Shown here: positions 2-49,467 of the stretch, in pieces
Layout of the letters: each line of letters begins with the position of its first letter
How positions within the stretch are numbered: position 1 is the first letter of the stretch
Source of the DNA: a virus
Lineage: Duplodnaviria; Heunggongvirae; Uroviricota; Caudoviricetes
Reading direction: 5' to 3' (one strand)
Length of the DNA stretch: 64,000 nucleotides
IMG/VR virus record: IMGVR_UViG_2724679539_000005
Coordinates: 12,292 to 76,291 of that record
Notes under the pieces: generated by a model
What the model saw: the letters and a program-made list of their open reading frames with translations, nothing else
Told to the model about the DNA's origin: nothing
Database searches by the model: none
Position numbers and translations under genes: made by a program

Positions 2-1840
2 GCCGCAATTCAGTCTCTACAGCAGAAGTTAGCGGCAAAACCATCAACCGCACAAGATGTTGGTGAGTTCGTTGGACAAGCAGCGCCATTTGTTAGTGGT
101 GGTGGGATTATTTCTCAGGTTCCCAAAGGGGCGGCAAGACTGGCTGCCGCCGCAGGGCTTGGTGCTGGAGAAGGGGCTATTGTAGCCAATGGAACAAATA
201 GCGATGTTGCTTCCGGCGCTGCTATTGGCGCTGTGGCTGGCCCTGTAGCCGAACTTGCTGGCCCTGCAATTAATAAAATAGCTGGGAAATTAACCAAGAA
301 GAATGTTTCTTCGATTCCAGATATTGAGGGGATTACTCCTGCCGAAGAGAAAATTCGTAAGTTATCTGCACAAGGCAACCCAAATCTTGCCTCTTCGCTT
401 GAAGGGCTAGATCTAAAACCTCAGAAAGAAATTGTTGAGGCTGCAAATAGGCTTCATGTTGATTCAGTTCTTCCTTCTCATTTATCAGGAAATGAGCAAT
501 ACCAAGCTGTAGAGCAAGCCCTAAAGTCACGGACAGGATCAGCGTTAAAAGCTCAAGAAGATAAAGCAATAAGCGAATTAGCCTCTAGTGCTGGCAAGAT
601 AATCGATGATGTTGCTGGTGCGCCAGATGCGTTAGCTATGAGCGAAAAATATATTTATCAGATAAATAGTAGAATGGAAGCACTAAAAAACCGTAGTGAT
701 CAGTTATATAAACGTGTTGATTCCGCTCTATCACCAAGAACAAAAGTCGAAGCAAATAACACAAGCACTATGCTGGAAAAAATCGCTGATGATTTAGGAG
801 GGTGGGATAATCTTGACCCAATAGAAAAGCGAGTTTTTACAGCAATAAACCCCGGACCAGATAGCATCCTAACGTATGCAAATTTAAACAGGCAAAGGCG
901 TTTAGTTGGTGATGCCCTAAATAAAAAGCAGGGGCCATACAAAGATGCTGATAAAGAAACGCTATCAAGACTATATGGAGCTTTAGCTGAAGACCAAAAA
1001 TCTGTCTTATCCAATACTGGATACTTGCGAGATTTCGAAGTCGCACAACGCCTTGTAGCTATGAGAAAAAACTTAGAAAGGCAAATGGTAAATCTTCGCG
1101 GGAAAACACTTAATGGGGATATAGCGTATAAAGTAACGAATTCTCTTCAATCTATGGCAAAAGGTGATGCGAGAGGGTTTCGTGAGATTATGCAAAATAC
1201 TCCATCAAGAACATTGCGAAGGGAGCTAGTAGGAACAGCATTAAGAGATATGCTTTCCTCTGGGAAGCGTGGGGCCGACTTTAATCCATCTGGCTTTGCA
1301 GATTGGTGGCAAAACTTGCAACACAGTGGACAGCTAAAGACTTTGGCTGAACATTTGCCAAAAGAAACAATGAGCGGACTATATGATGTATACAAAGTTG
1401 CCAGAGCAATAAAAAATGCTAAAGCGCATGAAATATCTACTGGTAAGCTGAATGAGTTTGTAAACAGATTTAATCGGGTAACAGCTCCATACGAACTAGC
1501 AGCAAAACACATTCAAAAAATAGGCACGATGGTAGGCGCTCATTTTGGATCGCTTGGAGCCATTGCTGGGGCTGATATTGGAGCAAGATTGGCGAGTAAA
1601 GCTCGATTAGCTGGTGGAGCAGGGGCGGCTGATGCTGCGGATAAATTAATTGCCTCGCCAGCCTTCCAGAGCGCAGTAAAAAATCTACACGGAAAAGCGC
1701 CTGGGCACATTGTTGATTCACGTATCAGGCGCTCCCCTCAATGGAAGAGTTTTTTTAACTCTCTTCCTGAACAGGAAAAACGGACCATCGCCAGACTGGG
1801 CATCATTACTTGGCTATCTAATGATCCAGATAATGACTAG
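2..1840 (+). CDS. C-terminal part (>=612 aa) of a large Gly/Ala-rich protein of unknown function; 5' end lies outside the window
   Basis: Frame is open from position 2 to the TAG at 1838-1840; the track's first Met is at 233. Gly/Ala-rich stretches near both ends. No family recognised. Confidence 0.5.
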   Translation, partial: AAIQSLQQKLAAKPSTAQDVGEFVGQAAPFVSGGGIISQVPKGAARLAAAAGLGAGEGAIVANGTNSDVASGAAIGAVAGPVAELAGPAINKIAGKLTKKNVSSIPDIEGITPAEEKIRKLSAQGNPNLASSLEGLDLKPQKEIVEAANRLHVDSVLPSHLSGNEQYQAVEQALKSRTGSALKAQEDKAISELASSAGKIIDDVAGAPDALAMSEKYIYQINSRMEALKNRSDQLYKRVDSALSPRTKVEANNTSTMLEKIADDLGGWDNLDPIEKRVFTAINPGPDSILTYANLNRQRRLVGDALNKKQGPYKDADKETLSRLYGALAEDQKSVLSNTGYLRDFEVAQRLVAMRKNLERQMVNLRGKTLNGDIAYKVTNSLQSMAKGDARGFREIMQNTPSRTLRRELVGTALRDMLSSGKRGADFNPSGFADWWQNLQHSGQLKTLAEHLPKETMSGLYDVYKVARAIKNAKAHEISTGKLNEFVNRFNRVTAPYELAAKHIQKIGTMVGAHFGSLGAIAGADIGARLASKARLAGGAGAADAADKLIASPAFQSAVKNLHGKAPGHIVDSRIRRSPQWKSFFNSLPEQEKRTIARLGIITWLSNDPDND

Positions 1841-1859
1841 TGAATGGCCACGGATGGCC

Positions 1860-2285
1860 TCAATCTTTATTCTTTGAAATAGAGTCATTGATCTTTTCGA
1901 AACACCAATGAAATCCACAAAAGAGAGCTACACCAATATAACAATACAAAACTATCAACCACCTTTCAGTGTCCGAAGGGTAAAAAACATCAATTACATA
2001 AGCAACACCAATTGGTATTAATGCTAGTAATAACATCGACACAGGACGTACAAACTTCTGAACTATATCAATTTTATAGAACCACAAGGCGGTATGTTTA
2101 ATGATATAAGTAAAGATGGCTGCGCCAATAATGGCAAAAAACACCATCGATAAAGTCGGGTATAACTTTGCGACAATTAAACCCAACAAAATAATTATAA
2201 CTGCCTGCCCCCTCACACCAACCCTCCCTTTAGCTTTGTTTAGAATGGCAATCATCATATATCCAAGACATGGCATTTGGTACAT
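1860..2285 (-). CDS. small integral membrane protein (about 3-4 TM helices); start uncertain
   Basis: Track ORF 1860-2474; the hydrophobic body starts at internal Met codons (2255-2285). Convergent with and immediately downstream of the large ORF. Confidence 0.4.
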   Translation of the reverse strand: MYQMPCLGYMMIAILNKAKGRVGVRGQAVIIILLGLIVAKLYPTLSMVFFAIIGAAIFTYIIKHTALWFYKIDIVQKFVRPVSMLLLALIPIGVAYVIDVFYPSDTERWLIVLYCYIGVALFCGFHWCFEKINDSISKNKD

Positions 2286-2408
2286 AGCTTGGGTCGGGAT
2301 TTCAAATCCGCCCCCGTTGATGGGGTCGTTACAGTACGCGCATATCCGCTTTATGTGAAACAGGAAGATTTTTCTGATATCACTGCCACAGCAAAACACC
2401 AATTTCGT

Positions 2409-2710
2409 GACCAGTACGCGCGCGAGGGGTATCAGTTGCAAAATTTTTTGCAACTGCGTCCGACCAGTACGCACACGATGGCGGGGGATACCATGAAACT
2501 GTTCTCTACACGAGACAGAGTGGTGGTGATGTGTTGATTATCGGCGTATATGCGCACAGGACGCGCTATGACGATGTTTTATGCGGGTACACCAATCACA
2601 TGTATCTGGTGTGATAAATCGCGTTACATGACCTCTCATGTTGTGCTGGTGGTTATCACGACGTTCTGAATCTGGCTTTTGTCTGATATTTTGCGACAAG
2701 TACGCGCGCG
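2409..2710. repeat. three copies of the 16-bp motif GAC(C/A)AGTACGC(G/A)C(G/A)CG plus a 24-bp perfect palindrome; a fourth motif copy lies at 5410-5427
   Basis: Motif at 2409-2424, 2462-2477, 2695-2710 and 5410-5427. Palindrome CAGTTGCAAAATTTTTTGCAACTG at 2433-2456. Confidence 0.5.
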
Positions 2711-3047
2711 TAACATCGAAATTATCGGATGGCGTATGTTGCTGGCAAGATAAAGTCGGCGTAATACAAAGGCGTTACTTGATAGCAGCAAGATTACAAC
2801 AATGGTTGTTGAATTTGAGCGATGTAAGGAATTGATTTAGGGAGGCGCTGATGGCTAAAAAGTTCCACTACCAGCGGATGAATGCGCCAGCGATGGCCGT
2901 TTGGTAGTAAAAGAGGAGCCATTCCTCAATCAGTTGAATACATTATGCCAACTAAATGGGTGGGGGCACTGTGTGGGTATTCAGCGGTGACGGTATTTTT
3001 TAAGCCAAGGACTATCCGTAGCAGGGGGACTCATTTTGAAATATTTA

Positions 3048-3485
3048 TCATATGTAACTTATTATTTTAGATAAAGATTTCCAGTTAAAGAAAAAAGTTA
3101 TCATTGATATAATCAAATATGCCCCTGCGAGTAGCAGGGCATAATAATCCAGAGGCAGATTGCTGACAACAGGGGCAAACATCGAGATCATTGCTAATAG
3201 GCAGGCTGTGATCAGCGTAGTTCCTGTATCAAAAAGCCCCTCAATAATGCCTTTTAGTACTCCGTTACTTTTTAGAGCGCCTACAATTCCCTTTGAACTA
3301 TCAAAGCTACTTAGCATGGTGACTGATGCCAAAACAAAACCAAAGAGAACTCCAGAAATAGTTGAAAGAGCACCAGCAGCCGAAATGACAGCATTGTGAT
3401 CTAGGTCGTGTAAAAAATGGGCACCAGCAATAGCCATAGCTAGAGCAAACAATGACTTGGCAGCAAACAATTTCCGAGAACTCAT
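3048..3485 (-). CDS. small multi-pass membrane protein (145 aa), second gene of a two-gene cassette
   Basis: About four hydrophobic helices; starts 12 bp after the stop of the upstream 361-aa ORF on the same strand; AT-rich. Confidence 0.6.
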   Translation of the reverse strand: MSSRKLFAAKSLFALAMAIAGAHFLHDLDHNAVISAAGALSTISGVLFGFVLASVTMLSSFDSSKGIVGALKSNGVLKGIIEGLFDTGTTLITACLLAMISMFAPVVSNLPLDYYALLLAGAYLIISMITFFFNWKSLSKIISYI

Positions 3486-3497
3486 AATGTATTCCTG

Positions 3498-4583
3498 TTA
3501 CGTTTGACTAACCAAATAGTACTGGGTTAGATACCTAAGGTTGTCATTCTTTGCTTGTAGCATAGCATTTTTAACGTCAGTATCGGTCGGATACCCATCT
3601 GCTTGGATAGGCACCATCTTCTTTACCGTAAGAACTTCGTCTACAAGACTTTTCTTCTTTTTATCGCCCTGAGCAACAACATTTGCTTTCTCAAAAGTTA
3701 AACGACCATCACCACCAGGGAACTTTTCTAGCATCTCCTTAAGGCTTTTTTTAACGTCATCCTCAAGCCATCCCTTTGCTTTTCTTTTTAATGGAGAATG
3801 TCCGCGTAACGAAATAGTCAGGTGGCTTGAACTGGTGCCTCTGATCATCTCAATCATCTGATTCGCGAACATTCCATCGAGTTGATACTGTGCGGCATTG
3901 AAGTTTCTTGGGATGGCCACAGAAATCTCGCAGCTTCTTAGATTGGATCCAGTTTCGAGTAGTTCTTTGATGCTTTCTTCTTTCCAAATGGCTTCAAAAG
4001 AAACAGGGACTCCGCGATCACTGGAGTTGAAAAGAAGGAAGGCTAAGTCACTATGGCGTGGACCTAAATGATTTAAAGACAATACTAGAATGTCTGTCTG
4101 AGGATAATAAATAAAGTATGTACGTTCTGAAAGAGTCTTTGCCCCGGCTAGAGGGATTTTCTCTTCCACCCACTCTTTATCTGTAATATATGCCAGTGTT
4201 GCGCTTTTTCTTCTTCGAGACATGAATCCGAAGTAGGAGCCATCCTCGGGTGAGATGTCTAGAAAATGAATTTTAAGTTCTCTTTCACCAAAGTCTGCAT
4301 AGTGGGTCATCTTGAAGTCTTTAGAACACCGATCATACAGATTTTTAAAGGCCTCTGCGGTTAACCCCTTGTTACTAGTGCGAATATTCTCAGAGCTTGT
4401 GTAAAAGCCCACCCTTACAGATTTCAAACTTTGATCTTTTGGTGCCACAGTCATTTGAGCTCCATTGTACTCTGCGATAGTTTTTGCACACCTTGAAATC
4501 AAAATCTCCATGTCAGTCACGAGAAAATAACTATGGATGAAACCCATCAAAGGCATTGAATACAGGTGGCTTTTGAGAATCAT
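3498..4583 (-). CDS. hypothetical cytoplasmic protein (361 aa), first gene of the two-gene cassette
   Basis: Long uninterrupted ORF with no recognisable motif; AT-rich codon usage unlike the flanking DNA; followed directly by the membrane-protein gene. Confidence 0.65.
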   Translation of the reverse strand: MILKSHLYSMPLMGFIHSYFLVTDMEILISRCAKTIAEYNGAQMTVAPKDQSLKSVRVGFYTSSENIRTSNKGLTAEAFKNLYDRCSKDFKMTHYADFGERELKIHFLDISPEDGSYFGFMSRRRKSATLAYITDKEWVEEKIPLAGAKTLSERTYFIYYPQTDILVLSLNHLGPRHSDLAFLLFNSSDRGVPVSFEAIWKEESIKELLETGSNLRSCEISVAIPRNFNAAQYQLDGMFANQMIEMIRGTSSSHLTISLRGHSPLKRKAKGWLEDDVKKSLKEMLEKFPGGDGRLTFEKANVVAQGDKKKKSLVDEVLTVKKMVPIQADGYPTDTDVKNAMLQAKNDNLRYLTQYYLVSQT

Positions 4584-4934
4584 CCTAACCTGGTGACGGT
4601 GGTTCGCATATCCTGATGGATGATCAGTGATTAATCAATGCGCCAAGCAGATGTGTCTATGTGTTTGTTAATCATTGCATGACAGTAGATCGACATGGGA
4701 GATCACGTTATATAGTTGAATTGTTAGGATATCCATGCACCGATCAACTGACTAGGCTGATGTGCTTTTTAGCAGGTGCCATATAGTAGTTAGGCGGTTC
4801 TGTGAAATGATTACTGTTCCAGCATAACTGCGGCATAAAGCGGTGCTATATAAGCTATTTGCTGGCGGATTTAGTCTTCACCGTTAATATATGTAGTGAC
4901 TATTTGACAGAGTGTTAGTTCACGGACACTTTTT

Positions 4935-5043
4935 GTTGGTTCAAAATGAGTTGATGTTGGTTCAATATTTTAGAAAAAACACAATAAAAACAACGCTCTT
5001 TACAAATTGAACCAACTGAACCAACTGAACCAACTGAACCAAC
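4935..5043. repeat. iteron-like 9-bp repeats TGAACCAAC: two inverted copies and four perfect tandem copies
   Basis: GTTGGTTCA at 4935-4943 and 4958-4966; (TGAACCAAC)x4 at 5008-5043. Lies in the divergent intergenic region between the 361-aa cassette and the PerC-like gene. Confidence 0.6.
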
Positions 5044-5079
5044 ACCTTTTTGCTTATCTATATAATCTGAGAGGCAGAA

Positions 5080-5361
5080 ATGATAAGGGACAGGAAAGCT
5101 GAAGAGCTGGAGTCAAAAGGGCTATACCGGAGAGCTGCCGCACGATGGATGGAAGTCATGCTGTTATGCACCGAGGACGATGATCGGGAATGGATAAAGC
5201 GCCGCCGTGAAACGTGTCTGGAGAACGTGAAGCGCCCGCCCGTGAAGGTTGAGGAATTTGGCGACCTGCATAAAGCTGTTACCGAAACGCAACACCGCAT
5301 GGGGATAGCGCAACCGAACGGTAACGCCTTCCGGTTAAATGGCGGCAAGAGGCAAAGGTAG
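5080..5361 (+). CDS. PerC-like small transcriptional activator (93 aa)
   Basis: Size and N-terminal pattern (KAEELE..GLYRRAA.RW.EV) recalled as PerC/Pch family; not verified by search. Confidence 0.45.
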   Translation: MIRDRKAEELESKGLYRRAAARWMEVMLLCTEDDDREWIKRRRETCLENVKRPPVKVEEFGDLHKAVTETQHRMGIAQPNGNAFRLNGGKRQR

Positions 5362-5658
5362 ACCACCAGAGGGAAATCATCCTCTGGCTGGCGGTTTCTG
5401 GTATTTCGGGACAAGTACGCGCACGCGTAGCACCCAATCGGTGAGGAAATAGCGGCGACCTGAATGGTCAAAATCACAACGCAGCTATCCCCGTAAGCAT
5501 CGCTTAACGGAATAGCAGTAACCTGAATCCAGTGGGGAGGGGGTAGTCAAATCTCTACAGGCCTGACTATCCGGGACTGCCCGCCCCATCGTTTTTTTAT
5601 ACCCGCGAAAAATGAAATTTAATCCGGGCGTGTTTCATCCTTCCAGAGGGTATGACGT

Positions 5659-5844
5659 ATGGCACCACGCGAAATAGCCTTATTGACCATCGCCAAACTT
5701 GAGCACGGAGGCCACCAGCTTACACAGGCAGATCAACGGGAGATAGAACGATCAGTTAATGCCGATATAGCCCGGCGCGACAGGTTCCGCGAAATGATGC
5801 GAGCACCTGCCTACCAGTGGAAGAAGCCAGCGCCGCGCAGGTAG
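5659..5844 (+). CDS. hypothetical small protein (61 aa)
   Basis: ORF with a charged/basic C-terminus; no family recognised. Confidence 0.3.
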   Translation: MAPREIALLTIAKLEHGGHQLTQADQREIERSVNADIARRDRFREMMRAPAYQWKKPAPRR

Positions 5845-5964
5845 ATATGGGATTATTCCACATGTAACTTATGCGTATTAAGCAAATTTCCTTTATTCAC
5901 CTTTACAGAATTGTGAGTACGTCAGTATCGTTATCCTTCCGATTCGCATTTATTCAGGATTTGC

Positions 5965-6507
5965 ATGTACCAGCTAAAGATAACCATCCGAGACAGCAAA
6001 CCACCTATATGGCGGCGTGTGCTGGTTCCAGAGCAAATCCCCTTTAGTAAACTTCATGCCGTGATCCAGTTAGCTTTTGGCTGGAATGACGAACACCTGT
6101 ATATGTTCGAGAAAGGGCGTAAAGGTGATCCAGGTAGCGAGTATCGCGTATGGGGTGAGGATGAAAGCATGGGTAACGCGGCAATCACGCCACTATGGGC
6201 GGCGCTCCAGAATGAGGGTGACAAGCTGGTTTACACGTATGACTTTGGCGACTGGTGGGATTGCGTCATTGTGCTGGAGAAGCAAACACACGATACGAGT
6301 AATCAGCCCATTAGCTGCCTGCGTGGGAAAGGCACCACCCCGGCGGAAAACTCAGGCGGCTTGCATGGTTACAATGAATTGCTATTACAGGCCAGAGAGT
6401 CTGATAATCCTGAGCAGGCCGAGATCCACAATTTCCTGATGCTGGATATTGAACGCCGGGTTTACGACCTGAGCCGCATCAACGACAGATTGCAGGCTAT
6501 TAACTGA
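5965..6507 (+). CDS. pRiA4b ORF-3-like family protein (180 aa)
   Basis: N-terminal pattern IxIT(I)RDSKPPIWRR..VP..F..LH..IQ.AFGW...HLY.F recalled as the PF07929-like family. Confidence 0.5.
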   Translation: MYQLKITIRDSKPPIWRRVLVPEQIPFSKLHAVIQLAFGWNDEHLYMFEKGRKGDPGSEYRVWGEDESMGNAAITPLWAALQNEGDKLVYTYDFGDWWDCVIVLEKQTHDTSNQPISCLRGKGTTPAENSGGLHGYNELLLQARESDNPEQAEIHNFLMLDIERRVYDLSRINDRLQAIN

Positions 6508-6859
6508 CCCGCATGTATTCACCTGATATTGCGTTATCAGCGCCGCCAGTATCGCGCATAACAGCACAATGACCGGGTAAACCGTAACGCACGACCGTTG
6601 CGTTAGTCTCACCGCCGCGCCGTATCTGGCGCGATTCATACACTGTCACCCGCTCAAGCAGTCCACCAGCAACCATGCTTTCCAGTGTGCGCCGGGTTGA
6701 TTCGAGCTGGTGACGCTTATCGAACGACACCATGCCATGAAGCAGGTAGGCCACACCCGACACATCGAACGGCGGCGCACCAATCTCACCAGTCACCCAT
6801 TCGAGGTTATCCGGTTCAAAGTAGCTAAGTATCTCTTTTTTGCGGCTGGTCATTCTCAT
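6500..6859 (-). CDS. hypothetical protein (119 aa), possible winged-helix fold
   Basis: ORF convergent with the preceding gene, overlapping by 8 bp. Confidence 0.35.
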   Translation of the reverse strand: MRMTSRKKEILSYFEPDNLEWVTGEIGAPPFDVSGVAYLLHGMVSFDKRHQLESTRRTLESMVAGGLLERVTVYESRQIRRGGETNATVVRYGLPGHCAVMRDTGGADNAISGEYMRVS

Positions 6860-7060
6860 GGCTGGCTGATTCCTTATTGTGGGATAGCACTATCATACAA
6901 TAAGTGGGTTAAAGGGAGAGCGTTACCGCCTGATATGCTGTATGAATAACAACCAAATTTCAGGGGCGGAAAAAGATATGGGGGTACTTTTGGGGGTATC
7001 TATAAAAAATGAACAATAAAAAAGGCAACAAAAACAAAGCTTATCGCCTATGTGTATTGT

Positions 7061-7077
7061 TCCTATTATCGCACCAT
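7061..7077 (+). other. att core, copy 1 (thrW 3'-end-like TCCTATTATCGCACCAT), next to the integrase 3' end
   Basis: 17-nt match to the tRNA-Thr(CGU) 3' end as recalled; the same core recurs at 48847-48863 and 62056-62072, each followed by an AAATCAATAA-like flank. Confidence 0.6.
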
Positions 7078-7090
7078 CTAAATCAATAAG

Positions 7091-8251
7091 TTACCTCGCA
7101 TTTAAGTAAACTACGTTCTCCTCTTGTGCCGTATTTGTGCCATTGCGACTTATAATCGCATCGATTTTGCTCGCGTGCTCGGTGAGATGCCCAGCTGAAA
7201 GGTGGGCGTATCTTTGAACCATTTCGAGAGTTTCCCATCCTCCCATCTCTTTAAGTGCAAGAAGAGAGACACCGGACTGAACCAGCCAGCTTGCCCAGGT
7301 ATGCCTCAGGTCATGGAAGCGGAAGTTGCTAATGCCTGCCCGCTTTAACGCTCCCTTCCATGCCTTGTTGCTGTCGGTTCTCATCTTCCTTACCGCTGCT
7401 GTTTTTGTTCCGTCGCTTCGGTAGGCAGGTTTGGTGTGGACAAATACCCATCTCTTATGGAGCCCCTGCTGTTTTCTTAATATCTGGCATGCGGTTTCGT
7501 TAAGAGGAACTCCGATCGCATTGCCAGCTTTTGTTTCATCAGGGTGCATCCATGCCATTTTCTTATCCAGATCGACCTGTGACCACTCAAGGTCTGTAAC
7601 GTTGGAACGACGAAGGCCTGTCGTGATTGCAAACATGACCACAGGGAAGAAATGAGGAGCAATTTCTGCAAACAGGCGCTTCGATTCCTCCTCTGTAAGC
7701 CATCTGATTCGTCCATTCTTAACGCGTGGTGTTGATATTTTGGGCGCCCTGTCAAGCCATCCCCATTCAACAGCCATATTGAGAATAGCGCGAAGTATTG
7801 CCAGATGCCGCGTCTTCGTTCCTTTGCTTGCCAGCTTTGGTTTATACTCCGGCACTGGCTTGCCAAGCCGCAAACACCTATCCCGGCTCATCTCCCAGTT
7901 CAGGCGATGGCGGCGGTTTTCCATCCCGTCTACCGCCTCCATTATTTTTTCTGTTGTTATGTCAGAGAGAATGGTTTCTCTGAAGTGCAACATCCAGAAC
8001 GATATAATGCTCTTGTCATCATCAATGGACTTCTTATCCGATTTCTCACGCAGCCACCGTATGCAGGCTTCCTTGAATAGCTTTTTCGGTGATTCCCCGA
8101 GATTTTTTACTCTCCACGCTTCTGCTTTCAGACGATCGTGAAGTTCTTGCGCTTGCCTCTTGTCCGATGTTTCAAGAGAGCGTCTAACTCTTGATCCATC
8201 TGGCGCGACGAAATCGCAGTGCCATGTGCCACCGCGCAGTTTGATTGACAT
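7091..8251 (-). CDS. int: tyrosine integrase (P4/CP4-type)
   Basis: C-terminal catalytic region with [13 protein letters not shown] and the conserved Tyr region (VQRYAHL); 386 aa; adjacent to the att core. Confidence 0.9.
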   Translation of the reverse strand: MSIKLRGGTWHCDFVAPDGSRVRRSLETSDKRQAQELHDRLKAEAWRVKNLGESPKKLFKEACIRWLREKSDKKSIDDDKSIISFWMLHFRETILSDITTEKIMEAVDGMENRRHRLNWEMSRDRCLRLGKPVPEYKPKLASKGTKTRHLAILRAILNMAVEWGWLDRAPKISTPRVKNGRIRWLTEEESKRLFAEIAPHFFPVVMFAITTGLRRSNVTDLEWSQVDLDKKMAWMHPDETKAGNAIGVPLNETACQILRKQQGLHKRWVFVHTKPAYRSDGTKTAAVRKMRTDSNKAWKGALKRAGISNFRFHDLRHTWASWLVQSGVSLLALKEMGGWETLEMVQRYAHLSAGHLTEHASKIDAIISRNGTNTAQEENVVYLNAR

Positions 8252-8547
8252 GCTTTAACCTCCTGCACATCAACCGCATTCACCGCGCCATTGTGTCTCA
8301 CAGACTTAAGCGCCGCAATGCAGTCTGACTTGCAAATGCGATATGGGCTTTTAGGTTTATCTGGATTTATCTTTGCGGCTTGAAGTCGTCCACTTCGTAT
8401 CCACTGCGTGATAGTGCCTTTGTCTACCTTCAGATACGACGCAGCCTCTTCACGAGTGAAGATTTCTTCTTCCACTTGGAGTCTCCATTTATTGGATTGA
8501 CATGATTGCTGTAGGTCTGGATATCTTGAGAAGCTGGCAGGCCTCAT
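8128..8547 (-). CDS. xis: excisionase / AlpA-like HTH DNA-binding protein; 3' extent uncertain
   Basis: HTH segment (EEAASYLKVDKGTITQWIRSGRL); directly upstream of int and overlapping its start in another frame. Confidence 0.55.
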   Translation of the reverse strand: MRPASFSRYPDLQQSCQSNKWRLQVEEEIFTREEAASYLKVDKGTITQWIRSGRLQAAKINPDKPKSPYRICKSDCIAALKSVRHNGAVNAVDVQEVKACQSNCAVAHGTAISSRQMDQELDALLKHRTRGKRKNFTIV

Positions 8548-12027: not shown

Positions 12028-12438
12028 TTAGTGATTCAGGCCGTTACCGCGTCCGTCGAGAAAAACTTCCACGAGCAAATCACGGGTATAAGTGCGCTCG
12101 ATGCCGCGATGCAGATAAAGCCGTCCGCGTAAATTAGCTGATGCAGTCCAGGTACCATCTTTGTGTTTGACCAGCATTCCTGGCATGACCGCACCTCGAT
12201 TAACGGTCTGCGTTCCATAATGTTGATGAACCATAAAAACTCCTGCCCGTAAGCTGGGCTGCTGAACATATAGAGACTTCTGCGCGTATTCAGGCGGTGG
12301 ATGGCCGCCGGTTGTCATAACTAAGCCGCCTCGTTGAAGCGACTGAGGTATGAGGTGTTGAGTTGATTTCAGCTGGTCACACCGACGTTCACGCGTCCGT
12401 TTCACCCCTCGCACTCCCCGGAGCCTGCCGAAATTCAA
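12028..12438 (-). CDS. hypothetical early-left protein with Arg-rich N-terminus (possible N-like antiterminator or Kil-position gene)
   Basis: First ORF downstream of the putative OL/PL; N-terminal [10 protein letters not shown] motif resembles an arginine-rich RNA-binding motif. Assignment not established. Confidence 0.3.
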
Positions 12439-16146: not shown

Positions 16147-17076
16147 ATGGCAAACACTGCTGAGATATTCAATTTTCCAGTGCCGGATGTGGCACAAAAG
16201 GAGCCGCGCGTGGCAGATCTTGATGATGGTTATACGCGCATTGCTAATGAGTTGCTGGAAGCTGTGATGCTGGCGGGATTAACACAGCACCAGCTTCTGG
16301 TCTTCCTGGCTGTCATGCGCAAAACATATGGCTTTAATAAAAAACTGGATTGGGTGAGCAACGAGCAACTTTCCGAATTGACCGGGATATTGCCGCACAA
16401 GTGTTCTGCTGCAAAAAGTGTTCTGGTAAAGCGTGGGATTTTAATTCAGAGCGGGCGGAATATCGGCATTAATAATGTGGTCAGTGAATGGTCAACATTA
16501 CCCGAATCAGGTAAGAAAAATAAAGTTTACCTGAAAGAGGTAAATTTACCTGAATCAGGTAAGAAAAGTTTACCCAAATCAGGTAAAGGCGTTTACCCGA
16601 ATCAGGTAAACACAAAAGACAAACTAACAAAAGAAAATATAAAACCTTTTTCGTCCGAGAATTCTGGCGAATCCTCTGACCAGCCAGAAAACGACTTTCC
16701 TTTGGAGAAACTGGATGCTGCAATTCAGAGCGGCAGCAAGTGGGGGACAGCAGAAGACCTGACCGCCGCAGAGTGGATGTTTGACATGGTGAAGACCATC
16801 GCGCCCTCAGCCAGAAAACCGAATTTTGCAGGGTGGGCTAACGATATCCGCCTGATGCGTGAACGTGACGGACGTAACCACCGCGACATGTGCGTGCTGT
16901 TCCGCTGGGCATGCCAGGACAACTTCTGGTCCGGTAACGTGCTGAGTCCGGCCAAACTCCGCGACAAGTGGACCCAACTCGAAATCAACCGTAACAAGCA
17001 ACAGGCTGGCGTGACAACCGGAAAATCAAAACTCGACCTGACAAACACTGACTGGATTTACGGGGTGGATTTATGA
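16147..17076 (+). CDS. O: replication initiator O (lambda O-like)
   Basis: N-terminal ...RVADLDDGYTRIAN...RKTYGFNK... resembles lambda O; iterons lie inside the gene. Track ORF begins at 16057; Met at 16147 is the likely start. Confidence 0.85.
   Translation: MANTAEIFNFPVPDVAQKEPRVADLDDGYTRIANELLEAVMLAGLTQHQLLVFLAVMRKTYGFNKKLDWVSNEQLSELTGILPHKCSAAKSVLVKRGILIQSGRNIGINNVVSEWSTLPESGKKNKVYLKEVNLPESGKKSLPKSGKGVYPNQVNTKDKLTKENIKPFSSENSGESSDQPENDFPLEKLDAAIQSGSKWGTAEDLTAAEWMFDMVKTIAPSARKPNFAGWANDIRLMRERDGRNHRDMCVLFRWACQDNFWSGNVLSPAKLRDKWTQLEINRNKQQAGVTTGKSKLDLTNTDWIYGVDL
16498..16610. repeat. origin iterons inside the O gene (4-5 copies of about 19 bp, TTTACCCGAATCAGGTAAA-like)
   Basis: Direct repeats TTACCCGAATCAGGTAAG / TTTACCTGAATCAGGTAAG / TTTACCCAAATCAGGTAAA / TTTACCCGAATCAGGTAAA. 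Confidence 0.8.
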
Positions 17077-27023: not shown

Positions 27024-27239
27024 ATGAAATCCATGGATAAGTTAACAACGGGCATTGCCTACGGCACCTCCGCAGGCAGTGCTGGCTACTGGTTTTTACA
27101 GCTGCTCGATAAAGTCACGCCCTCACAGTGGGCAGCAATAGGTGTGCTGGGTAGCTTGGTATTTGGCCTGCTGACGTACCTGACAAACCTTTATTTCAAG
27201 ATTAAAGAAGATAAGCGCAAGGCTGCGAGAGGTGAATAA
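27024..27239 (+). CDS. class II holin (phage 21 S-like pinholin)
   Basis: 71 aa, two TM segments, charged C-terminus; very similar to DLP12 EssD / S21 as recalled. Confidence 0.85.
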
Positions 27240-29621: not shown

Positions 29622-31739
29622 ATGCGACAGGCCACGGCGGCGGAAGTCAGAAAGAATACCGCCGGGATCATAAAGGCACCGCGTCGGATGCCTGTTGCCG
29701 AGGCCGTTCATAAGTACATGCGGGTTCCCGTGGGCGTCGGAAACTCCGTCGAATGGGATCCGCAACTCGCCCCCTATGTCGTGGAGCCGATGAACTGCCT
29801 GGCATCACGTGAGTATGATGCTGTTATTTTTGTTGGTCCGGCCCGAACAGGTAAAACAATTGGGCTGATTGACGGCTGGGTGGTGTACAACGTGGTGTGT
29901 GACCCGTCGGATATGCTTATCGTCCAGATGACGGAAGAAAAAGCGCGTGAACACTCCAAAAAACGTCTGGCCAGAACATTTCGCGTCAGCCCGGAAGTGG
30001 CATGCAGGCTGAGTCCGTCGCGTAACGATAACAACGTTCATGACCGCACGTTTCTTGCCGGAAACTACCTCAAGATTGGCTGGCCCTCCGTCAACATCAT
30101 GTCATCCTCGGATTTTAAATGCGTTGCACTGACGGATTACGACCGTTTTCCGGAGGATATCGACGGGGAAGGCGATGGTTTTTCGCTGGCCTCAAAACGA
30201 ACCACCACATTTATGTCGGCGGGCATGACCCTGGTGGAGAGCTCGCCAGGGCGGGAAATCACCAATACCAAATGGCGACGAAAATCACCCCATGAAGCGC
30301 CACCCACTACCGGTATTCTGGCTTTATATAATCGCGGTGATCGCCGTCGCTGGTACTGGCCCTGTCCGCACTGTGGTGGGTACTTTCAGCCTGCTATGGA
30401 GGCGATGACCGGTTACCGCGATATTGCCGATCCGGTAAAAGCCAGTGAAGCGGCACATATCGTCTGCCCGCACTGTAACGGGGTGATCACAGCTGATAAA
30501 AAGCGGGAGCTTAACGGACGTGGCGTCTGGCTCAGAGAAGGTCAGAGCATTGATAAAGCCGGGAATATATCGGGTGATGCCCGTCGTTCCCGCATCGCGT
30601 CCTTCTGGATGGAAGGTCCCGCCGCGGCTTACCAGACCTGGGCACAGCTGGTTTACAAATTACTGACGGCAGAGCAGGACTATGAAACCACAGGCAGTGA
30701 AGAAACACTGAAAACGGTGATCAACACTGACTGGGGCTTACCTTATCTGCCACGCGCGGCGACCGAACAGCGCAGGGCTGATGTACTGATGCAGCGGGCG
30801 GAGGACTACGGTAAACGTCTGGTACCACCGAAGGTGCGTTTTCTGCTGGCATCGGTGGATGTACAGGGCGGGAAGAAACGTCGTTTTGTGGTGCAGATTA
30901 TCGGTTACGGTGAGAACGGCGAACGCTGGCTGGTGGATCGCTATAACATTCGTCAGTCCCTGCGCTGTGATGAAAACGGCGAGGCACTGACGATTCATCC
31001 GGGCTCTTACCCTGAGGATTGGCAGTTGCTGATCACGGATGTGCTGGAGAAAACATACCCTCTCCAGTCAAATCCTTCCCGCCGTATGCCCGTGCTGGCT
31101 ATGGCTGTGGACAGTGGGGGTGAGGATGGTGTGACGGATAATGCGTATAAGTTCTGGCGCACATGCCGCCGTGATGGTCTGGGAAAACGGGTATACCTGA
31201 TAAAAGGTGACAGTACCCGTCGCCAGAAAGTGATCACCCGAACACACCCTGATAATACCGGACGAAGCGATCGCCGGGCTGATGCCCGCGGCGAAGTACC
31301 GGTATATCTGTTGCAGACCGATCTGCTCAAAGATCAACTCAGCAATAATCTGGAGCGTGAAACCCCGGGGGCCGGGTATATCCATTTTCCCGACTGGCTC
31401 GGTGAGTGGTTTTACGAGGAGCTGACTTATGAGGAGCGGGGCAGCGACGGAAAATGGCGCAAGCCAGGTAAAGGGAACAACGAAGCATTCGACCTGTTCT
31501 GCTATGCCCATGCCGTCGCTATTCTGCGTGGTTACGAAAAAATCCGAGACTGGGAGCAGCCGCCTGCCTGGGCGGCATCTCAGGACACAAATCCGGACAT
31601 TATTGACGGGGAACGCCCCGGGGAGAGGGGAGTGAAAAAAGCGATATCCGCTCGTTCATCTCCGGTTGCCGTCACCGAACAGGCCAGCCCACTGTCTGGC
31701 GGCTGGCTGGGGGTCAGTGGTAACGGAGGCTGGCTATGA
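29622..31739 (+). CDS. terminase large subunit (lambda gpA family)
   Basis: 705 aa; Walker A-like VIFVGPARTGKT. Confidence 0.9.
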   Translation: MRQATAAEVRKNTAGIIKAPRRMPVAEAVHKYMRVPVGVGNSVEWDPQLAPYVVEPMNCLASREYDAVIFVGPARTGKTIGLIDGWVVYNVVCDPSDMLIVQMTEEKAREHSKKRLARTFRVSPEVACRLSPSRNDNNVHDRTFLAGNYLKIGWPSVNIMSSSDFKCVALTDYDRFPEDIDGEGDGFSLASKRTTTFMSAGMTLVESSPGREITNTKWRRKSPHEAPPTTGILALYNRGDRRRWYWPCPHCGGYFQPAMEAMTGYRDIADPVKASEAAHIVCPHCNGVITADKKRELNGRGVWLREGQSIDKAGNISGDARRSRIASFWMEGPAAAYQTWAQLVYKLLTAEQDYETTGSEETLKTVINTDWGLPYLPRAATEQRRADVLMQRAEDYGKRLVPPKVRFLLASVDVQGGKKRRFVVQIIGYGENGERWLVDRYNIRQSLRCDENGEALTIHPGSYPEDWQLLITDVLEKTYPLQSNPSRRMPVLAMAVDSGGEDGVTDNAYKFWRTCRRDGLGKRVYLIKGDSTRRQKVITRTHPDNTGRSDRRADARGEVPVYLLQTDLLKDQLSNNLERETPGAGYIHFPDWLGEWFYEELTYEERGSDGKWRKPGKGNNEAFDLFCYAHAVAILRGYEKIRDWEQPPAWAASQDTNPDIIDGERPGERGVKKAISARSSPVAVTEQASPLSGGWLGVSGNGGWL

Positions 31740-31959: not shown

Positions 31960-33471
31960 ATGGGCATTTTTGACAGGGCACTTGGCGCGATTGCGCCAGG
32001 GTGGGCTGTTTCGCGCGCCAGAAACAGAATGCTTCTTCGCGCCTACGAGGCGGCGCACCCCTCCAGAGTGAACAAAACAAAACGTGAGAGTCGGGCGGCA
32101 GATACTGCGGTGGGTGTGGCTGGCGTATCTCTGCGTGAGCAGGCACGGGCACTGGATGAAGACCATGACATAGTGATTGGTCTGCTGGATAAGCTGGAAG
32201 AACGTGTTATTGGTGCGCAGGGGATCCAGGTGGAGCCGCAACCGCTCAGTCTGGACGGTAAGCTGCATGAAGAATTTGCAGCACAGATATCTGCACTCTG
32301 GTCGGAATGGTCGGTGCGTCCGGAGGTGACGGGGGTGTTTACCCGTCCGGAAGCCGAGCGACTGGCGCTGCGTTCAGCACTGCGTGATGGTGAGATGTTC
32401 ACGCAGCTGGTGCGGGGCCCGGTTGCCGGACTGACGCACGCTACCCGAGTGCCGTTTTCACTGGAACTGCTGGAAGCTGATTTTGTCCCGTTCAGTCTGA
32501 ACAGCACATCGGGGCAGCAGATCCGCCAGGGCATTATCGTTAACGACTGGGGGCGTCCTGTTGGTTACCGGGTTTACAAATATCACCCGGCCAGTATGAC
32601 GCGCTTCAGCGCTGAACTGAAAACCATTGCGGCAGAGAACATGCTGCACCTTGCCCAGCGTAAACGCCTTCACCAGTTACGTGGCATAAGTCTGCTTCAT
32701 GGGGTGATCCGCCGTCTGGGTGACATTAAGGACTACGAAGAGAGCGAACGTGTGGCTGCCCGCATTGCTGCCGCGCTGGGCTTCTACATCAAGCGTGGTG
32801 ATGCCGCCAGCTTTCCGGCGGATGAAGACTGGAAACCCTCAGGACAAAAGTACCGCCACTTTGATATTGCGCCAGGCATGATTTTCGACGACCTGGCGCC
32901 GGGGGAAGATCTGGGCATGGTTGAGTCAAACCGTCCGAACGTCCACCTCCATGAGTTTCGTAACGGGCAACTGCGGGCGGTTGCCGCCGGGAGTCGCGGT
33001 AGCTATTCCAGTATTGCCCGTGACTATAACGGCACCTACAGCGCACAACGTCAGGAACTGGTGGAAAGTTACGAAGGTTATAACGTCCTGCAGCAATGGT
33101 TTGTGGGGCAGTTCAGCCGTCCGGTGTACCGCGCCTGGCTGGCAATGGCGCTGCTTGACATGGATATCCCGCCTGATATCGACAAAACCACGCTCTTTAA
33201 CGCGACCTATCTTGGTCCGGTGATGCCGTGGATTGATCCCGTCAAAGAGGCTGCAGCATGGCGGGCCATTCTTCGTGGTGGAGCAGGAACGGAAGCCGAG
33301 TGGATCCGTGCCAGAGGGCAGTCACCGCAGGAGGTCAAACGCCAGCGAATGCGTGAAACCGAATTTAACCGACAAAACGGGCTGGTGTTCGATTCTGACG
33401 CCGCCAACGATAAAGGAGTGCTCCCTGATGCAGCAAATGATAAGCCCGCCCTGTCGCGGGATGACGATTAA
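31960..33471 (+). CDS. portal protein
   Basis: 503-aa protein in the portal position after terminase and gpW. Confidence 0.7.
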   Translation: MGIFDRALGAIAPGWAVSRARNRMLLRAYEAAHPSRVNKTKRESRAADTAVGVAGVSLREQARALDEDHDIVIGLLDKLEERVIGAQGIQVEPQPLSLDGKLHEEFAAQISALWSEWSVRPEVTGVFTRPEAERLALRSALRDGEMFTQLVRGPVAGLTHATRVPFSLELLEADFVPFSLNSTSGQQIRQGIIVNDWGRPVGYRVYKYHPASMTRFSAELKTIAAENMLHLAQRKRLHQLRGISLLHGVIRRLGDIKDYEESERVAARIAAALGFYIKRGDAASFPADEDWKPSGQKYRHFDIAPGMIFDDLAPGEDLGMVESNRPNVHLHEFRNGQLRAVAAGSRGSYSSIARDYNGTYSAQRQELVESYEGYNVLQQWFVGQFSRPVYRAWLAMALLDMDIPPDIDKTTLFNATYLGPVMPWIDPVKEAAAWRAILRGGAGTEAEWIRARGQSPQEVKRQRMRETEFNRQNGLVFDSDAANDKGVLPDAANDKPALSRDDD

Positions 33472-45549: not shown

Positions 45550-46102
45550 ATTTCGCTCCCTGCTGCCGCCGGGCGCATTTCATGAAGAACGGGTGCAGGA
45601 GCAGGCGACGACAGAACACATCATCGCACTGGATACCAACATGGTGCGTAAGGTGAAAGATGCGGCCAGCTGCCCGGCACATCTTTTACCGTGGCTTGCG
45701 TGGGAACATGCCGTCGATTTCTGGGATGACAGCTGGACAGAGACACAAAAGCGCCAGGTGATTAAGGACGCCGCTTACGTGCATCAGCACCGGGGAACGG
45801 CGGGTGCGGTCAGGCGTTCTCTGGGGGCGGTAAACCTGCCGACCACTGTCGTGGAGTGGTGGCAGGATTCACCGCAGGCTGCACCCTACACATTCCGGAT
45901 TGAAGTTCACAGCAGTCAGGGCGTCAGCGATGCACTGTATCACCAGATTCGTCAGCTTACTGACCGGGCTAAAAACCTGCGCAGTCATCTGAGCAAAATA
46001 GATGTTCTGGCGAATATCGGGATGGATGGCGCTTTTTATATTTCAGGTGCGACGACAGCACATATCGATGTGGATATTTTTGCCGGGGAGTCTCATGGCT
46101 GA
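45539..46102 (+). CDS. gpI-like baseplate/tail protein
   Basis: 187 aa between the J-like and tail-fibre genes. Confidence 0.6.
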
Positions 46103-47792
46103 ATATTATTCAATTATTACTAACCGGGGAAAAGAACTGGAGGCGGAAGCGCTTGCCAGTGGTAGCCAGATTATTCTGACACAGTTTGTGGTTGGCGACA
46201 GTAATGGCAAACCGCTGAAACCCGATCCGGCACAAACGCAGCTTGTTAATGAAACCTACCGTGGAGATATTGCAGAGCTGGTGGTATCACCGGAACAGCC
46301 GACACAGCTCATGGCCAGAATTGTGCTGCCAACGGGAACGGGGGGGTTTACAGTCCGCGAAGTGGGACTGATGACTGATGGGGGGGAATTGTATGCCGTG
46401 GCGAACTGCCCGGCGATTGACAAACCGGTTGGCGGTGTCAGCGTCAATATGCAGTTCCGGCTTGCTGTATCTGACACCTCAAACATCACGTTAAATGTGG
46501 CAACGGGAGACGGACTTTTTCTGCGCATTGACCAGAACCTGAAGGAAATCAAAGCGCGCGGAGCTGGCGCGCAAAAAGAATCCCGCGAGTCTCTTGGTGT
46601 TCTGGATGCCACGACTAAGCAAAAAGGTCTGGTGCAACTGAACAGTGCGGTGAACAGCACCAGTGAGACACAGGCAGCGACATCAAAGGCGGTTAAGACA
46701 GCATATGACCTTGCTGATGGCAAATACACTGCACAGGACGCCACCACGGCACGAAAAGGGATTGTTCAGTTAAGCAGCGCCACTAACAGTGATTCTGAAA
46801 CGCTTGCCGCGACTCCGAAAGCGGTGAAAGCTGCCAATGACAATGCAAACGGGCGTGTGCCCTCAGGACGTAAGGTTAATGGCAAACCACTGAACAATGA
46901 TGTCAATGTTACATCGCAGGATATTTTTAACGGTCAGAGTATTGAGATTGGTGCAAACCAGAATCTGGATAATTACAAAACGCCGGGGCTGTACCATCAG
47001 CCACTGAATGCCAATACAAGCGCAGTGCTGAAATACCCTGAGAATCTTTCAGGTACTCTGGTTGTGCTTAAAAATGCCGGAATAACACAAATTTACTATG
47101 TGTATAACACATCCAGAAGCTATACCCGCAGCCAGTACTCAACGGGTGGCTGGACACCATGGACGCCGCAGGATTCATTTCCGGTAGGTGCGGCGATTCC
47201 GTGGCCTTCTGATTCAGTACCTACAGGCTATGCCATTATGCAGGGGCAGACTTTTGACAAGGCAGCCTATCCCCTGCTTGCAGGAGCTTATCCGTCAGGA
47301 GTGATTCCCGATATGCGGGGCTGGACAATCAAGGGCAAACCCGCCAGTGGCCGCGCTGTATTGTCTCAGGAACAGGACGGTATTAAATCGCATACTCACA
47401 GCGCCAGTGCGTCAAATACGGATTTAGGAACGAAAACGACAAGTTCATTTGATTACGGCACGAAGACAGTCAGCACGTTTAACCATGGTACCAAAACCAC
47501 CAATACAACAGGTAATCATACCCATACAATTTACAGGGGTAATGCCAGAACCAACAGTGAAACCGGTTATACGGGTTTTGATAATCCATCATTTAATGGA
47601 ACATCAAGTGCAGCAGGGAACCATGCTCATACTGTTGACATTGGTCAACATAACCACACCGTAGGTATTGGTGCCCATGCACACACTGTGGCATTGGGGG
47701 CGCACGGACACACCATCACGGTCAATGCTACGGGGAATGCAGAGAACACCGTAAAAAACGTTGCATATAACTATATTGTGAGGCTGGCATAA
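46098..47792 (+). CDS. tail fibre protein with His-rich HxH repeat tip
   Basis: Conserved N-terminus ([12 protein letters not shown]...), variable C-terminus with repeated HTH/HAH/HxH motifs. Confidence 0.8.
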
Positions 47793-48817: not shown

Positions 48818-48863
48818 ATTCGTAATGCGAAGGTCGTAGGTTCGACTCCTATTATCGCACCAT
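48818..48863 (+). other. att copy 2: 45-nt remnant of the tRNA-Thr (thrW-like) 3' end; not a complete tRNA
   Basis: ATTCGTAATGCGAAGGTCGTAGGTTCGACTCCTATTATCG-CACCA matches the thrW 3' end from the anticodon loop onward, with one deletion; no acceptor or D arm upstream. Confidence 0.8.
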
Positions 48864-49467
48864 CAAGAAAATCAATAACTTAGCTTAACTTCTCTAAGAA
48901 ATTGTATCTTCTGTTATCACTTACAAACGCCTATACGTTGTTATGGGCTTTGGTAGTGTAACACGTATGGGCGAGTAGTTCCCAGGCTCAACCTCGTAAC
49001 AAGTTCCTTTGAAGCTGGAAGACGTGCCACCGTCTCTAAACCTTCTACCAAAACTCTTAGCAAGATGTTCCACACCTGGCGCGGTGTCCAATGATGCTAC
49101 ACGTCGTGAGACGTTGCAGAGGATAAACAGGCTAAATGATGGGAAGAGTTTTAAGTGCAATAGTGGATTAAAGCCCACCTCTTCAAAACCTAACTTGATC
49201 GGGAAAGAATCAAGCTCTAGCACGGTTTCGTCCACCGGAGTACAACGGGTGCCTGATAAGAGAAGAACTGCTAAGACTTCATAGCTTTTGTGAAAAAGCC
49301 CTTTTTAGTGGATACGCCTACGGCGCTTATTTTTTGGTATAACCATCAAAGGCGCTTTATGGCTCCTATTGTCTTGAAAATGTATCTTTACTTGTATTGT
49401 GTTTTATGCGTAGTCTCCCTGTGTAGTATGTAACTTGTTAATTTTCATATGAATACAGAGGCACACG

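Follow-up and report, generated by a model that had tools for sequence, protein, structure and literature searches.

A probable P22-type ejection protein gene and a convergent small membrane gene on an EcCIMP1-like chromosomal island

The stretch of viral DNA considered here (the window, 64,000 nucleotides, positions 12,292 to 76,291 of IMG/VR record IMGVR_UViG_2724679539_000005) begins inside a large reading frame and continues with a small gene on the opposite strand. Our analysis makes it very probable, identity and context taken together, that the large gene encodes the ejection protein that stands at the position of gene 16 in P22-like phages (Lederbergvirus), and that it is carried by a satellite: judged by comparison of sequences, the locus is not in a phage but in an island of about 18.7 kb at tRNA-Thr (thrW) that belongs to the EcCIMP1 family of phage-inducible chromosomal islands (PICIs). 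The gene identities as such are ordinary; a satellite-borne cassette that joins cognate ejection proteins with a convergent slot gene is modestly novel.

The large protein and its host island

The reading frame is open from base 2 of the window to the TAG at 1838-1840 (612 codons, plus strand), and its length together with homologs at E = 0 puts it far beyond chance. Its translation is 100% identical to residues 94-705 of the 705-aa protein WP_046076940.1 of Escherichia coli Ec1120, and the identical 705-aa sequence is represented in the protein database by cluster P0017 with 433 member sequences. The original prediction had described an open reading frame of at least 612 aa with Gly/Ala-rich segments that runs off the start of the window, and this description is borne out, with the Gly/Ala enrichment now assigned to two places: the overall content of the two residues is 21.3%, and it reaches at least 45% in windows of 30 aa in two stretches only.

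2 to 1840, plus strand: C-terminal 612 codons and stop codon of the probable gene-16-position ejection protein of the P22-like type (from the reading frame; full length from homologs)
68 to 298, plus strand: first Gly/Ala-rich segment, residues 116-192 of the full-length protein (from the 30-aa windows; low confidence in the AlphaFold2 (AF2) model, where it is disordered)
1523 to 1699, plus strand: second Gly/Ala-rich segment, residues 601-659, 46 to 105 residues before the C-terminus (from the 30-aa windows)

The assignment to the gene-16 class is supported by profiles, by homologs and by their gene order. Among the PHROGs, the protein matches phrog_6704 (2e-126) and phrog_770, a 'DNA transfer protein' (3e-50). 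In tblastn searches, homology extends from end to end at 41-45% identity to Kapi1_058 and to proteins of E212 and EC.P3, all of them temperate P22-like podoviruses, and the C-terminal part of Sf101 gp13 shares 58-63% identity with the last 500 aa or so. In Kapi1 and Sf101, the gene for the homolog comes after gp7-like and gp20-like genes for 'DNA ejection/transfer' and is itself followed by the tailspike region; gene 16 of P22 has this very position, and the same gene order surrounds the homolog in a complete P22-like prophage of E. coli (L007). A scan of one genome per species in GTDB yielded 13 loci with a homolog: the long loci of Xenorhabdus, Erwinia and Symbiopectobacterium have, in this order, portal, coat, gp4, gp10, needle, gp7, gp20, the homolog and the tailspike, and the locus of Pandoraea contains part of that virion gene set only. 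All homologs found in phages and prophages, including the P22-like contig L023, lie inside a P22-type virion gene cluster.

By its sequence, the 705-aa protein is of another type than P22 gp16. The gp16 types of P22-like phages are mutually only 22-26% identical (Leavitt et al., PMC10883804). Two bridges lead from the 705-aa protein to P22 gp16. One is the mosaic protein gp13 of Sf101, with residues 196-358 that are 71% identical to P22 gp16 and residues 357-907 that are 58% identical to the 705-aa protein. The other is found in the sister island L006, where a protein of 701 aa with 30% identity to P22 gp16 (E 6e-52) occupies the same slot. In many relatives, the C-terminal module is fused to a lytic transglycosylase domain of the SLT type. 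In the AF2 model, which is based on an alignment of 38 sequences, a low-confidence region of 224 N-terminal residues precedes an all-alpha core (residues 225-585 approximately, pLDDT about 90), and a search of BFVD with this core returned 40 predicted phage proteins at E <= 1e-3, of which several bear SLT, LT_GEWL or M15B domains and one has the name 'Injection protein'. Neither a sequence search nor a Foldseek search of the AF2 model against the PDB matched a solved structure. The two-segment Gly/Ala pattern recurs in most of the other gene-16-position proteins examined, and the first segment is nearly identical in the homologs of L007 and Kapi1 despite overall identities of 41-44%. The second segment has a location analogous, in a purely positional comparison, to the C-terminal region of P22 gp16, to which the changes G532W and P546S that allow escape from SieA have been mapped (PMC10883804).

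Some observations count against this identity. Pfam and NCBIfam searches with the 705-aa protein gave no match, nor any to a gp16 model, and pairwise similarity to P22 gp16 itself was not detected (BLASTP E 0.5); because this direct similarity is missing, the gene-16 class rests on position, mosaics and PHROG profiles. Moreover, the DNA to the left of window base 1 was taken from other strains that are identical or nearly identical, and it is from these strains that we infer the N-terminal 93 aa and the gp20 neighbour; they show two architectures, one with genes 14 and 7 (MS15236) and one without them (Ec1120).

The first 7145 nt of the window are 99.7% identical to the DNA of Ec1120, and the first 5000 are 100% identical. 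In this strain the locus belongs to an island that is flanked by copies of the attachment site (att) core at 8315-8324 and 27052-27061 of the Ec1120 sequence (L001). The backbone of the island encodes an integrase, an AlpA-like regulator, an AntA/B antirepressor, an Ash-family protein and a P4-alpha-like primase (Zn-ribbon, Toprim, DUF5906), and the cassette is followed by variable cargo and then by a PerC-like regulator. Capsid, portal, terminase, tail or lysis genes are absent from the island of Ec1120, and a tblastn search of it with the virion proteins of P22, Kapi1 and Sf101 detected gp20 and gene-16 homologs only. Beyond the large gene, the window contains the right part of the island, from the slot gene to att.

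5080 to 5361, plus strand: regulator of the PerC/ANR family, a hallmark of EcCIMP1-like PICIs (family match; PMC11773190)
7061 to 7070, plus strand: att core TCCTATTATC, right end of the island, identical to the published att core of EcCIMP1

EcCIMP1 is the PICI of E. coli MP1 (Pick, Stadel & Raivio, ISME J 2025; PMC11773190); its sequence is referred to as L008. The window island shares with it the att core, the tRNA-Thr site, the backbone (integrase, AlpA, AntA/B, Ash, primase, PerC-like regulator) and the presence of an ejection module downstream of the primase, and window positions 4912-7081 are 98% identical to the right arm of EcCIMP1. The two islands differ in their modules: in EcCIMP1, gp14-, gp7- and gp20-like genes are combined with a gene-16-position protein of 906 aa that bears an SLT domain, and the slot encodes a lipoprotein, whereas the window island has another cassette of gp20 C-half and gene 16 and a slot protein with four transmembrane (TM) segments. 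In the study of EcCIMP1, no phage-like structural genes were identified, and 'DNA transfer/DUF2824-like' genes were suggested to serve in packaging (PMC11773190); by our comparison, these genes are the P22 ejection module.

The commoner form of the island has the fuller module of gp14-like (DUF2824), gp7-like, gp20-like and gene-16-class genes, and MS15236 combines this fuller module with the 705-aa allele of the window and the membrane gene. A junction between the island leader and gp20 was found in 108 of 5426 complete E. coli genomes and a junction between the leader and gp14 in 257 of them; overall, an ejection module is joined to an island-specific leader in at least 365 of the 5426, all these counts being based on megablast coverage thresholds and not on curated annotation. 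About 7% or more of the complete E. coli genomes contain this PICI family with its P22-type ejection module, and the module went unrecognised in the paper that defined the family. At a second site, between yicC and dinD, the same backbone is associated with another integrase (29% identity); it was not found in 50,697 deposited phage genomes. With P4-like satellites, the island has in common the Ash (epsilon-like) protein, the alpha-like primase/helicase (Zn-ribbon, Toprim, DUF5906), an AlpA-like regulator and variable cargo; it differs from them in that no Sid, Psu or Delta homologs were detected in the island, and in that the helper shown for the type member EcCIMP1 is a P22-like podovirus, not P2. 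Our literature searches found no direct report of satellites that carry ejection proteins.

The gp20 partner and the gene in the sieA slot

In Ec1120, the gene directly upstream encodes a protein of 447 aa with the Pfam domain Inj_translocase ('DNA/protein translocase of phage P22 injectosome', 2.5e-73), which shares 54% identity with the first 212 aa of P22 gp20 and, over the full length, 75% with gp20 of Kapi1. The island gp20 and the copy in the L007 prophage are separated by 84 synonymous and 24 non-synonymous differences (dN/dS 0.066). Ten elements were compared, and in nine of them the C-half of gp20 varies together with the gene-16 type: wherever the gene-16 protein resembles the 705-aa protein over its full length, the C-half is homologous to that of the Ec1120 gp20 (100, 100, 93, 93 and 50% identity), and with other gene-16 types it is unrelated, even if the N-half is 96% identical (L006). 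In MS15236, the N-half of gp20 is only 60% and the C-half 100% identical. Sf101 is the sole exception, with a gene-16 C-part that is 58% identical and a gp20 C-half without similarity. Since the C-half follows the gene-16 type, it forms the mobile unit together with gene 16 and the slot gene. It has been established by experiment that gp16 and gp20 must be cognate, and that gp7 is interchangeable (PMC10883804). Our data agree with this genetic requirement, the functional pairing of the two proteins being seen here as co-variation and not as a demonstrated interaction, and they point to the C-half of gp20 as the part that is likely to contact gp16.

The gp16 protein of P22 is packaged into the capsid and leaves it when the phage adsorbs; it builds together with gp20 and gp7 a conduit for the DNA across the cell envelope, and acts at the inner membrane (PMC10883804). 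The locus resembles genes 20 and 16 of P22 in the order of the gp20 homolog, the gene-16-position gene and a convergent small gene, in the Inj_translocase domain of the gp20 partner, and in the N- and C-proximal Gly/Ala segments that both proteins have. It differs from P22 in that the protein is of the phrog_6704 type (the module of Kapi1_058 and of the C-terminal part of Sf101 gp13) and is encoded by a satellite that lacks other virion genes. Some E. coli genomes encode chimeras (clusters P0019, P0020 and P0058) in which an integrase Arm domain or the N-terminal Inj_translocase domain of gp20 is joined to the C-terminal 52-68% of the 705-aa protein; this part is 98-100% identical to the 705-aa protein, and the chimeras indicate that the cassette has undergone deletions or rearrangements in these genomes.

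The small convergent gene occupies what we call the sieA slot.

1846 to 1859, no strand assigned: short hairpin GGCCACGGATGGCC, read from the sequence, which fills most of the gap between the two genes
1860 to 2216, minus strand: 118-aa membrane protein with four TM segments in the sieA slot, GTG start at 2216-2214 (from the reading frame, TM prediction and the starts of homologs)
2291 to 2755, minus strand: conserved leader/promoter region upstream of the slot gene, 95% identical to L008 18697-19164 of EcCIMP1

The stop codon of the membrane gene is located at 1860-1862, which leaves 19 nt between the two convergent stops, and the hairpin in this gap was not called as an intrinsic terminator. 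A GGGAGG Shine-Dalgarno sequence (2228-2223) lies 6 nt before the in-frame GTG at 2216-2214, and the two divergent homologs (P0008 and P0137) as well as the gene of the alternative cassette in L006 start at the equivalent residue. Because of this spacing and these matching starts, the protein probably has 118 aa, and the starts at 2285 (ATG, 141 aa) and at 2255 (PGAP, 131 aa) are probably too long. The small polytopic membrane protein that had been proposed on the opposite strand is real, with four predicted TM segments (predicted topology N-in/C-in) and the 19-nt gap; only its end at 2285 probably has to be moved inward.

A promoter-like site is present at 2748-2721 on the minus strand, in the leader, which the window island shares with EcCIMP1 and with cassettes encoding other envelope proteins. 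The homologs P0009, P0015 and P0016 have the 5' leader in common and diverge after it, which indicates an exchange of cassettes behind a common expression signal. In an exhaustive profile search of 1.84 billion representatives, the membrane family comprised only three full-length clusters, with no link to known families; weak matches of the 118-aa protein to Bax1-I (1e-5) and to the CBO0543 family (4e-5) fell below the curated cut-offs, and we treat them as generic similarity of TM helices. In all three clusters the gene is convergent to a member of this gene-16 family at a distance of 17-21 nt. The identities of the gene-16 and the membrane protein are 100% and 100% for the window, 62% and 48% for L023, and 26% and 39% for L027. 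L023 is a true P22-like contig, in which the pair is followed by the Arc/Mnt/antirepressor region, and the pair of L027 adjoins a P22-type tailspike. The parallel divergence of both genes argues for a long co-inheritance, without proving a functional link.

The precedent for such a layout is SieA of P22 (Leavitt et al., mBio 2024; PMC10883804). The sieA gene of P22 is convergent to gene 16 with a gap of 22 nt, and the type-B SieA of prophage HS1, which we retrieved and confirmed by its motif, is encoded in the same place. Every sieA gene examined by Leavitt et al. lay in a P22-like prophage (PMC10883804). The sister PICI L009 (E. coli 23CRST013, located at yicC-dinD) carries in the slot a genuine SieA homolog of 204 aa with four TM segments (16437-17051, minus strand), which is 33% identical to HS1 SieA (E 1e-9), matches P22 SieA at E 3e-8 and contains the NRYPGEA motif. 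EcCIMP1 has in this place a 232-aa lipoprotein with an LLAGC lipobox (L008 17897-18595, plus strand), encoded directly after the gene-16-class gene, which is a candidate for the superinfection immunity of EcCIMP1; elsewhere, the slot contains secreted proteins (L006, Kapi1), a soluble protein (L007) or an Mnt-like protein (Sf101). Like SieA, the 118-aa protein is small, polytopic and predicted to lie in the membrane, and its gene is convergent to the gene-16-position gene at a distance of about 20 nt; a true sieA homolog occupies the identical slot in L009. The slot is the same as in P22 and HS1, and members of the family occur in the true P22-like genomes L023 and L027. It differs from SieA in its length (118 aa compared with 162-212 aa) and in the lack of similarity to the compared types A and B; by sequence, it is not a SieA homolog.

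Possible roles of the cassette and rival explanations

EcCIMP1 excises only if the P22-like helper Kapi1 is present and induced, and alpA and int are needed (PMC11773190). As known from the literature on relatives, foreign sets of ejection proteins enter P22 virions and function there. The gp20/gene-16 pair of the island would be expressed upon induction of a P22-like helper and would be loaded into the capsids built by the helper, resulting in island-carrying particles with their own matched conduit for DNA delivery. We regard this capsid-loading role as a tentative idea, possible and on the doubtful side. In the resting island, the four-TM protein would be produced under the control of its own promoter and, as an analog but not a homolog of SieA, would disturb the injection of DNA by P22-like phages at the inner membrane; such an exclusion role is a possibility to be taken seriously, if not quite a probable one. 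It is tempting to combine these ideas into a portable 'injection/exclusion cassette' made up of the cognate gp20 C-half, the gene-16-class protein and the envelope protein of the slot, in which the ejection proteins are loaded into helper capsids, the conduit specified by the island possibly escapes SieA-type blocks in recipients, and the slot protein, here of a new four-TM family, excludes incoming P22-like phages at the inner membrane. In this complete form the proposal is rather unlikely to hold.

If true, EcCIMP1-like islands would be satellites that supply virion-internal proteins for DNA delivery. Satellites hijack or remodel capsids, packaging and tails, and satellites that supply the proteins of the conduit for DNA entry would intervene at another point. 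EcCIMP1 adds superinfection immunity against Kapi1 by an unexplained mechanism (PMC11773190). An exclusion role would, if true, account for this immunity, for which the slot proteins, i. e. the SieA of L009 and the new membrane family of three clusters, are concrete candidates.

Several findings speak against these roles. Kapi1 transduces EcCIMP1 at low frequency only, and EcCIMP1 leaves the titres of Kapi1 unchanged (PMC11773190). In the comparison with SieA, the 118-aa protein gave a BLASTP E value of 2.9 and hhalign probabilities of 1.3% (type A) and 0.1% (profile of types A and B), and the FxRYPxEAxxFNK motif of SieA is not found in it. Moreover, the slot proteins of other elements may be soluble or unrelated (e. 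g. L007, Sf101), and the position alone is therefore no proof of an exclusion function.

One rival explanation is an inert remnant: recombination would have brought part of a P22-like late operon into a PICI, where the module is carried passively and serves neither the island nor the host. Decay does occur: the fusions and truncations of the 705-aa gene in P0019, P0020 and P0058 are examples, and L009 contains a truncated pseudogene of the P22 gp16 family. The unaltered helper titres would fit as well, and the dN/dS of the 705-aa gene is uninformative, with island copies that differ by three non-synonymous and no synonymous changes and with saturated distant comparisons. However, the module stands on an island-specific leader in at least 365 genomes and in several allelic types, all reading frames are intact in five of six islands inspected, and the island gp20 shows the low dN/dS of 0.066 relative to the prophage copy. 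Moreover, the shortest module retains exactly the two proteins that must be cognate by experiment, and the boundary of the cassette falls inside gp20, so that the C-half is kept together with gene 16. We consider an inert remnant improbable.

For the membrane gene taken by itself, the rival explanation is closer. The gene might be an ordinary moron at the end of the late operon, with a transporter-like or stress-related function and linked to gene 16 by proximity only, as suggested by the unrelated slot cargo of different elements, soluble proteins included, by the lack of SieA homology and by the sub-threshold matches to Bax1-I and CBO0543, which are the only ones. On the other hand, in three of three clusters the membrane gene faces a gene of one and the same gene-16 family at 17-21 nt, with roughly parallel divergence, most of the slot cargo is located in the envelope (SieA three times, a lipoprotein and secreted proteins), and islands of the EcCIMP1 type confer a superinfection immunity that calls for an explanation. 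Set against the exclusion role, a moron is a reasonable possibility that stays below likely. The original prediction had already tied the membrane gene to its large neighbour, and the layout of gene 16 and sieA in P22 provides a precedent for such a tie; the logic in P22 is the exclusion of phages, and not the immunity to a toxin that had been envisaged. The idea of a toxin or bacteriocin whose immunity gene is convergent to it was suggested by the layout alone, a large protein with hydrophobic Gly/Ala-rich stretches beside a small polytopic membrane protein, and the few Foldseek matches to alpha-pore-forming toxins were insignificant and were disregarded (E > 1, TM < 0.1). Searches of Pfam, NCBIfam, PADLOC and the PDB revealed no toxin, colicin, secretion, translocation or lysis domain in the large protein, all PDB fold matches were non-significant, the phage and prophage homologs are all encoded in P22-type virion operons, and the slot partner is not conserved among close homologs; the toxin reading is dropped as highly improbable. 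The other proposal, a structural protein resembling a tape measure, came closer in that the product is predicted to be located inside the virion as an ejection protein. Its size, its alpha-helical character and its Gly/Ala-rich segments would suit a tape-measure-like tail protein of a phage virion, whereas the gene is located after gp20 and before the tailspike in the operons of short-tailed P22-like phages in all contexts, and no tape-measure match was found in Pfam or PHROG. To our knowledge, P22-like podoviruses have no tape measure, and since they have none, the 705-aa protein should not be one; we regard this as the least probable of all readings. The preferred reading remains that of an ejection protein at the gene-16 position.

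Further features of the island and its neighbours in the window

A 22-bp imperfect direct repeat (L001 8444 and 26969) was considered as the att site and dropped in favour of the published core of 10 bp, copies of which lie in the tRNA and at position 7061 of the window. Between the slot gene and the PerC-like regulator lies the variable cargo of the island.

3048 to 4583, minus strand: cargo of two genes, for a 145-aa membrane protein (3048-3485, phrog_8552) and a protein of 318-361 aa (3498-4583, phrog_7651)

Both PHROGs are without functional annotation. Sister islands have at this position ImmA/IrrE together with other genes, or an Abi-family protein, and the pair is a candidate for anti-phage cargo; PADLOC found no defence system among the ejection proteins, the membrane protein and the neighbouring cargo. 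About 2.3 kb upstream of window base 1 (L001 17615-17740), clustered direct and inverted GGTACAGGTG repeats follow a gene for a 245-aa protein downstream of the primase; by their arrangement, the repeats are iteron-like and may mark the replication origin of the island. They are followed by a terminator-like hairpin (L001 18098-18113) and by a reading frame of 57 aa immediately before the ejection module. The region of about 600 bp upstream of the module has no similarity to L007, HS1, P22, Kapi1, Sf101 or L023, and a sigma-70 scan found nothing in it; control of the module by a late promoter of the helper (Q/gp23-antiterminated) was rejected in view of the lack of similarity to the late promoter regions of P22-like phages. 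'Salmonella phage S.Kent 1-2-1' (23.5 kb), considered as a packaged satellite, turned out to be a partial contig of a true P22-like phage that extends from terL to the tailspike.

The att core TCCTATTATC is present in the window in three copies on the plus strand (7061-7070, 48847-48856 and 62036-62045), with 0.09 expected by chance. These copies delimit a tandem array at tRNA-Thr that consists of the PICI (to 7070), a prophage of about 41.8 kb (7071-48856) and an element of about 13.2 kb (48857-62045).

7071 to 48856: lambda-type prophage with an integrase (7091-8251, minus strand), Bet and replication protein P
29622 to 31739, 31960 to 33471 and 46002 to 47792: further genes of the same prophage, namely a gpA-type large terminase, a lambda-family portal and a tail fibre
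48857 to 62045: small element of low GC content (36-40%) with an integrase (60614-61978, minus strand; Phage_integrase and DUF6538)
56626 to 57663: gene resembling major capsid protein E (PF03864, 4.7e-14), followed by a 608-aa reading frame without Pfam match

The prophage was considered as a helper of the PICI; being of the lambda type and without P22-like virion markers, it is no obvious helper. The element at 48857-62045, with its gene for a putative major capsid protein, could be a capsid-forming satellite of the cf-PICI-like type.

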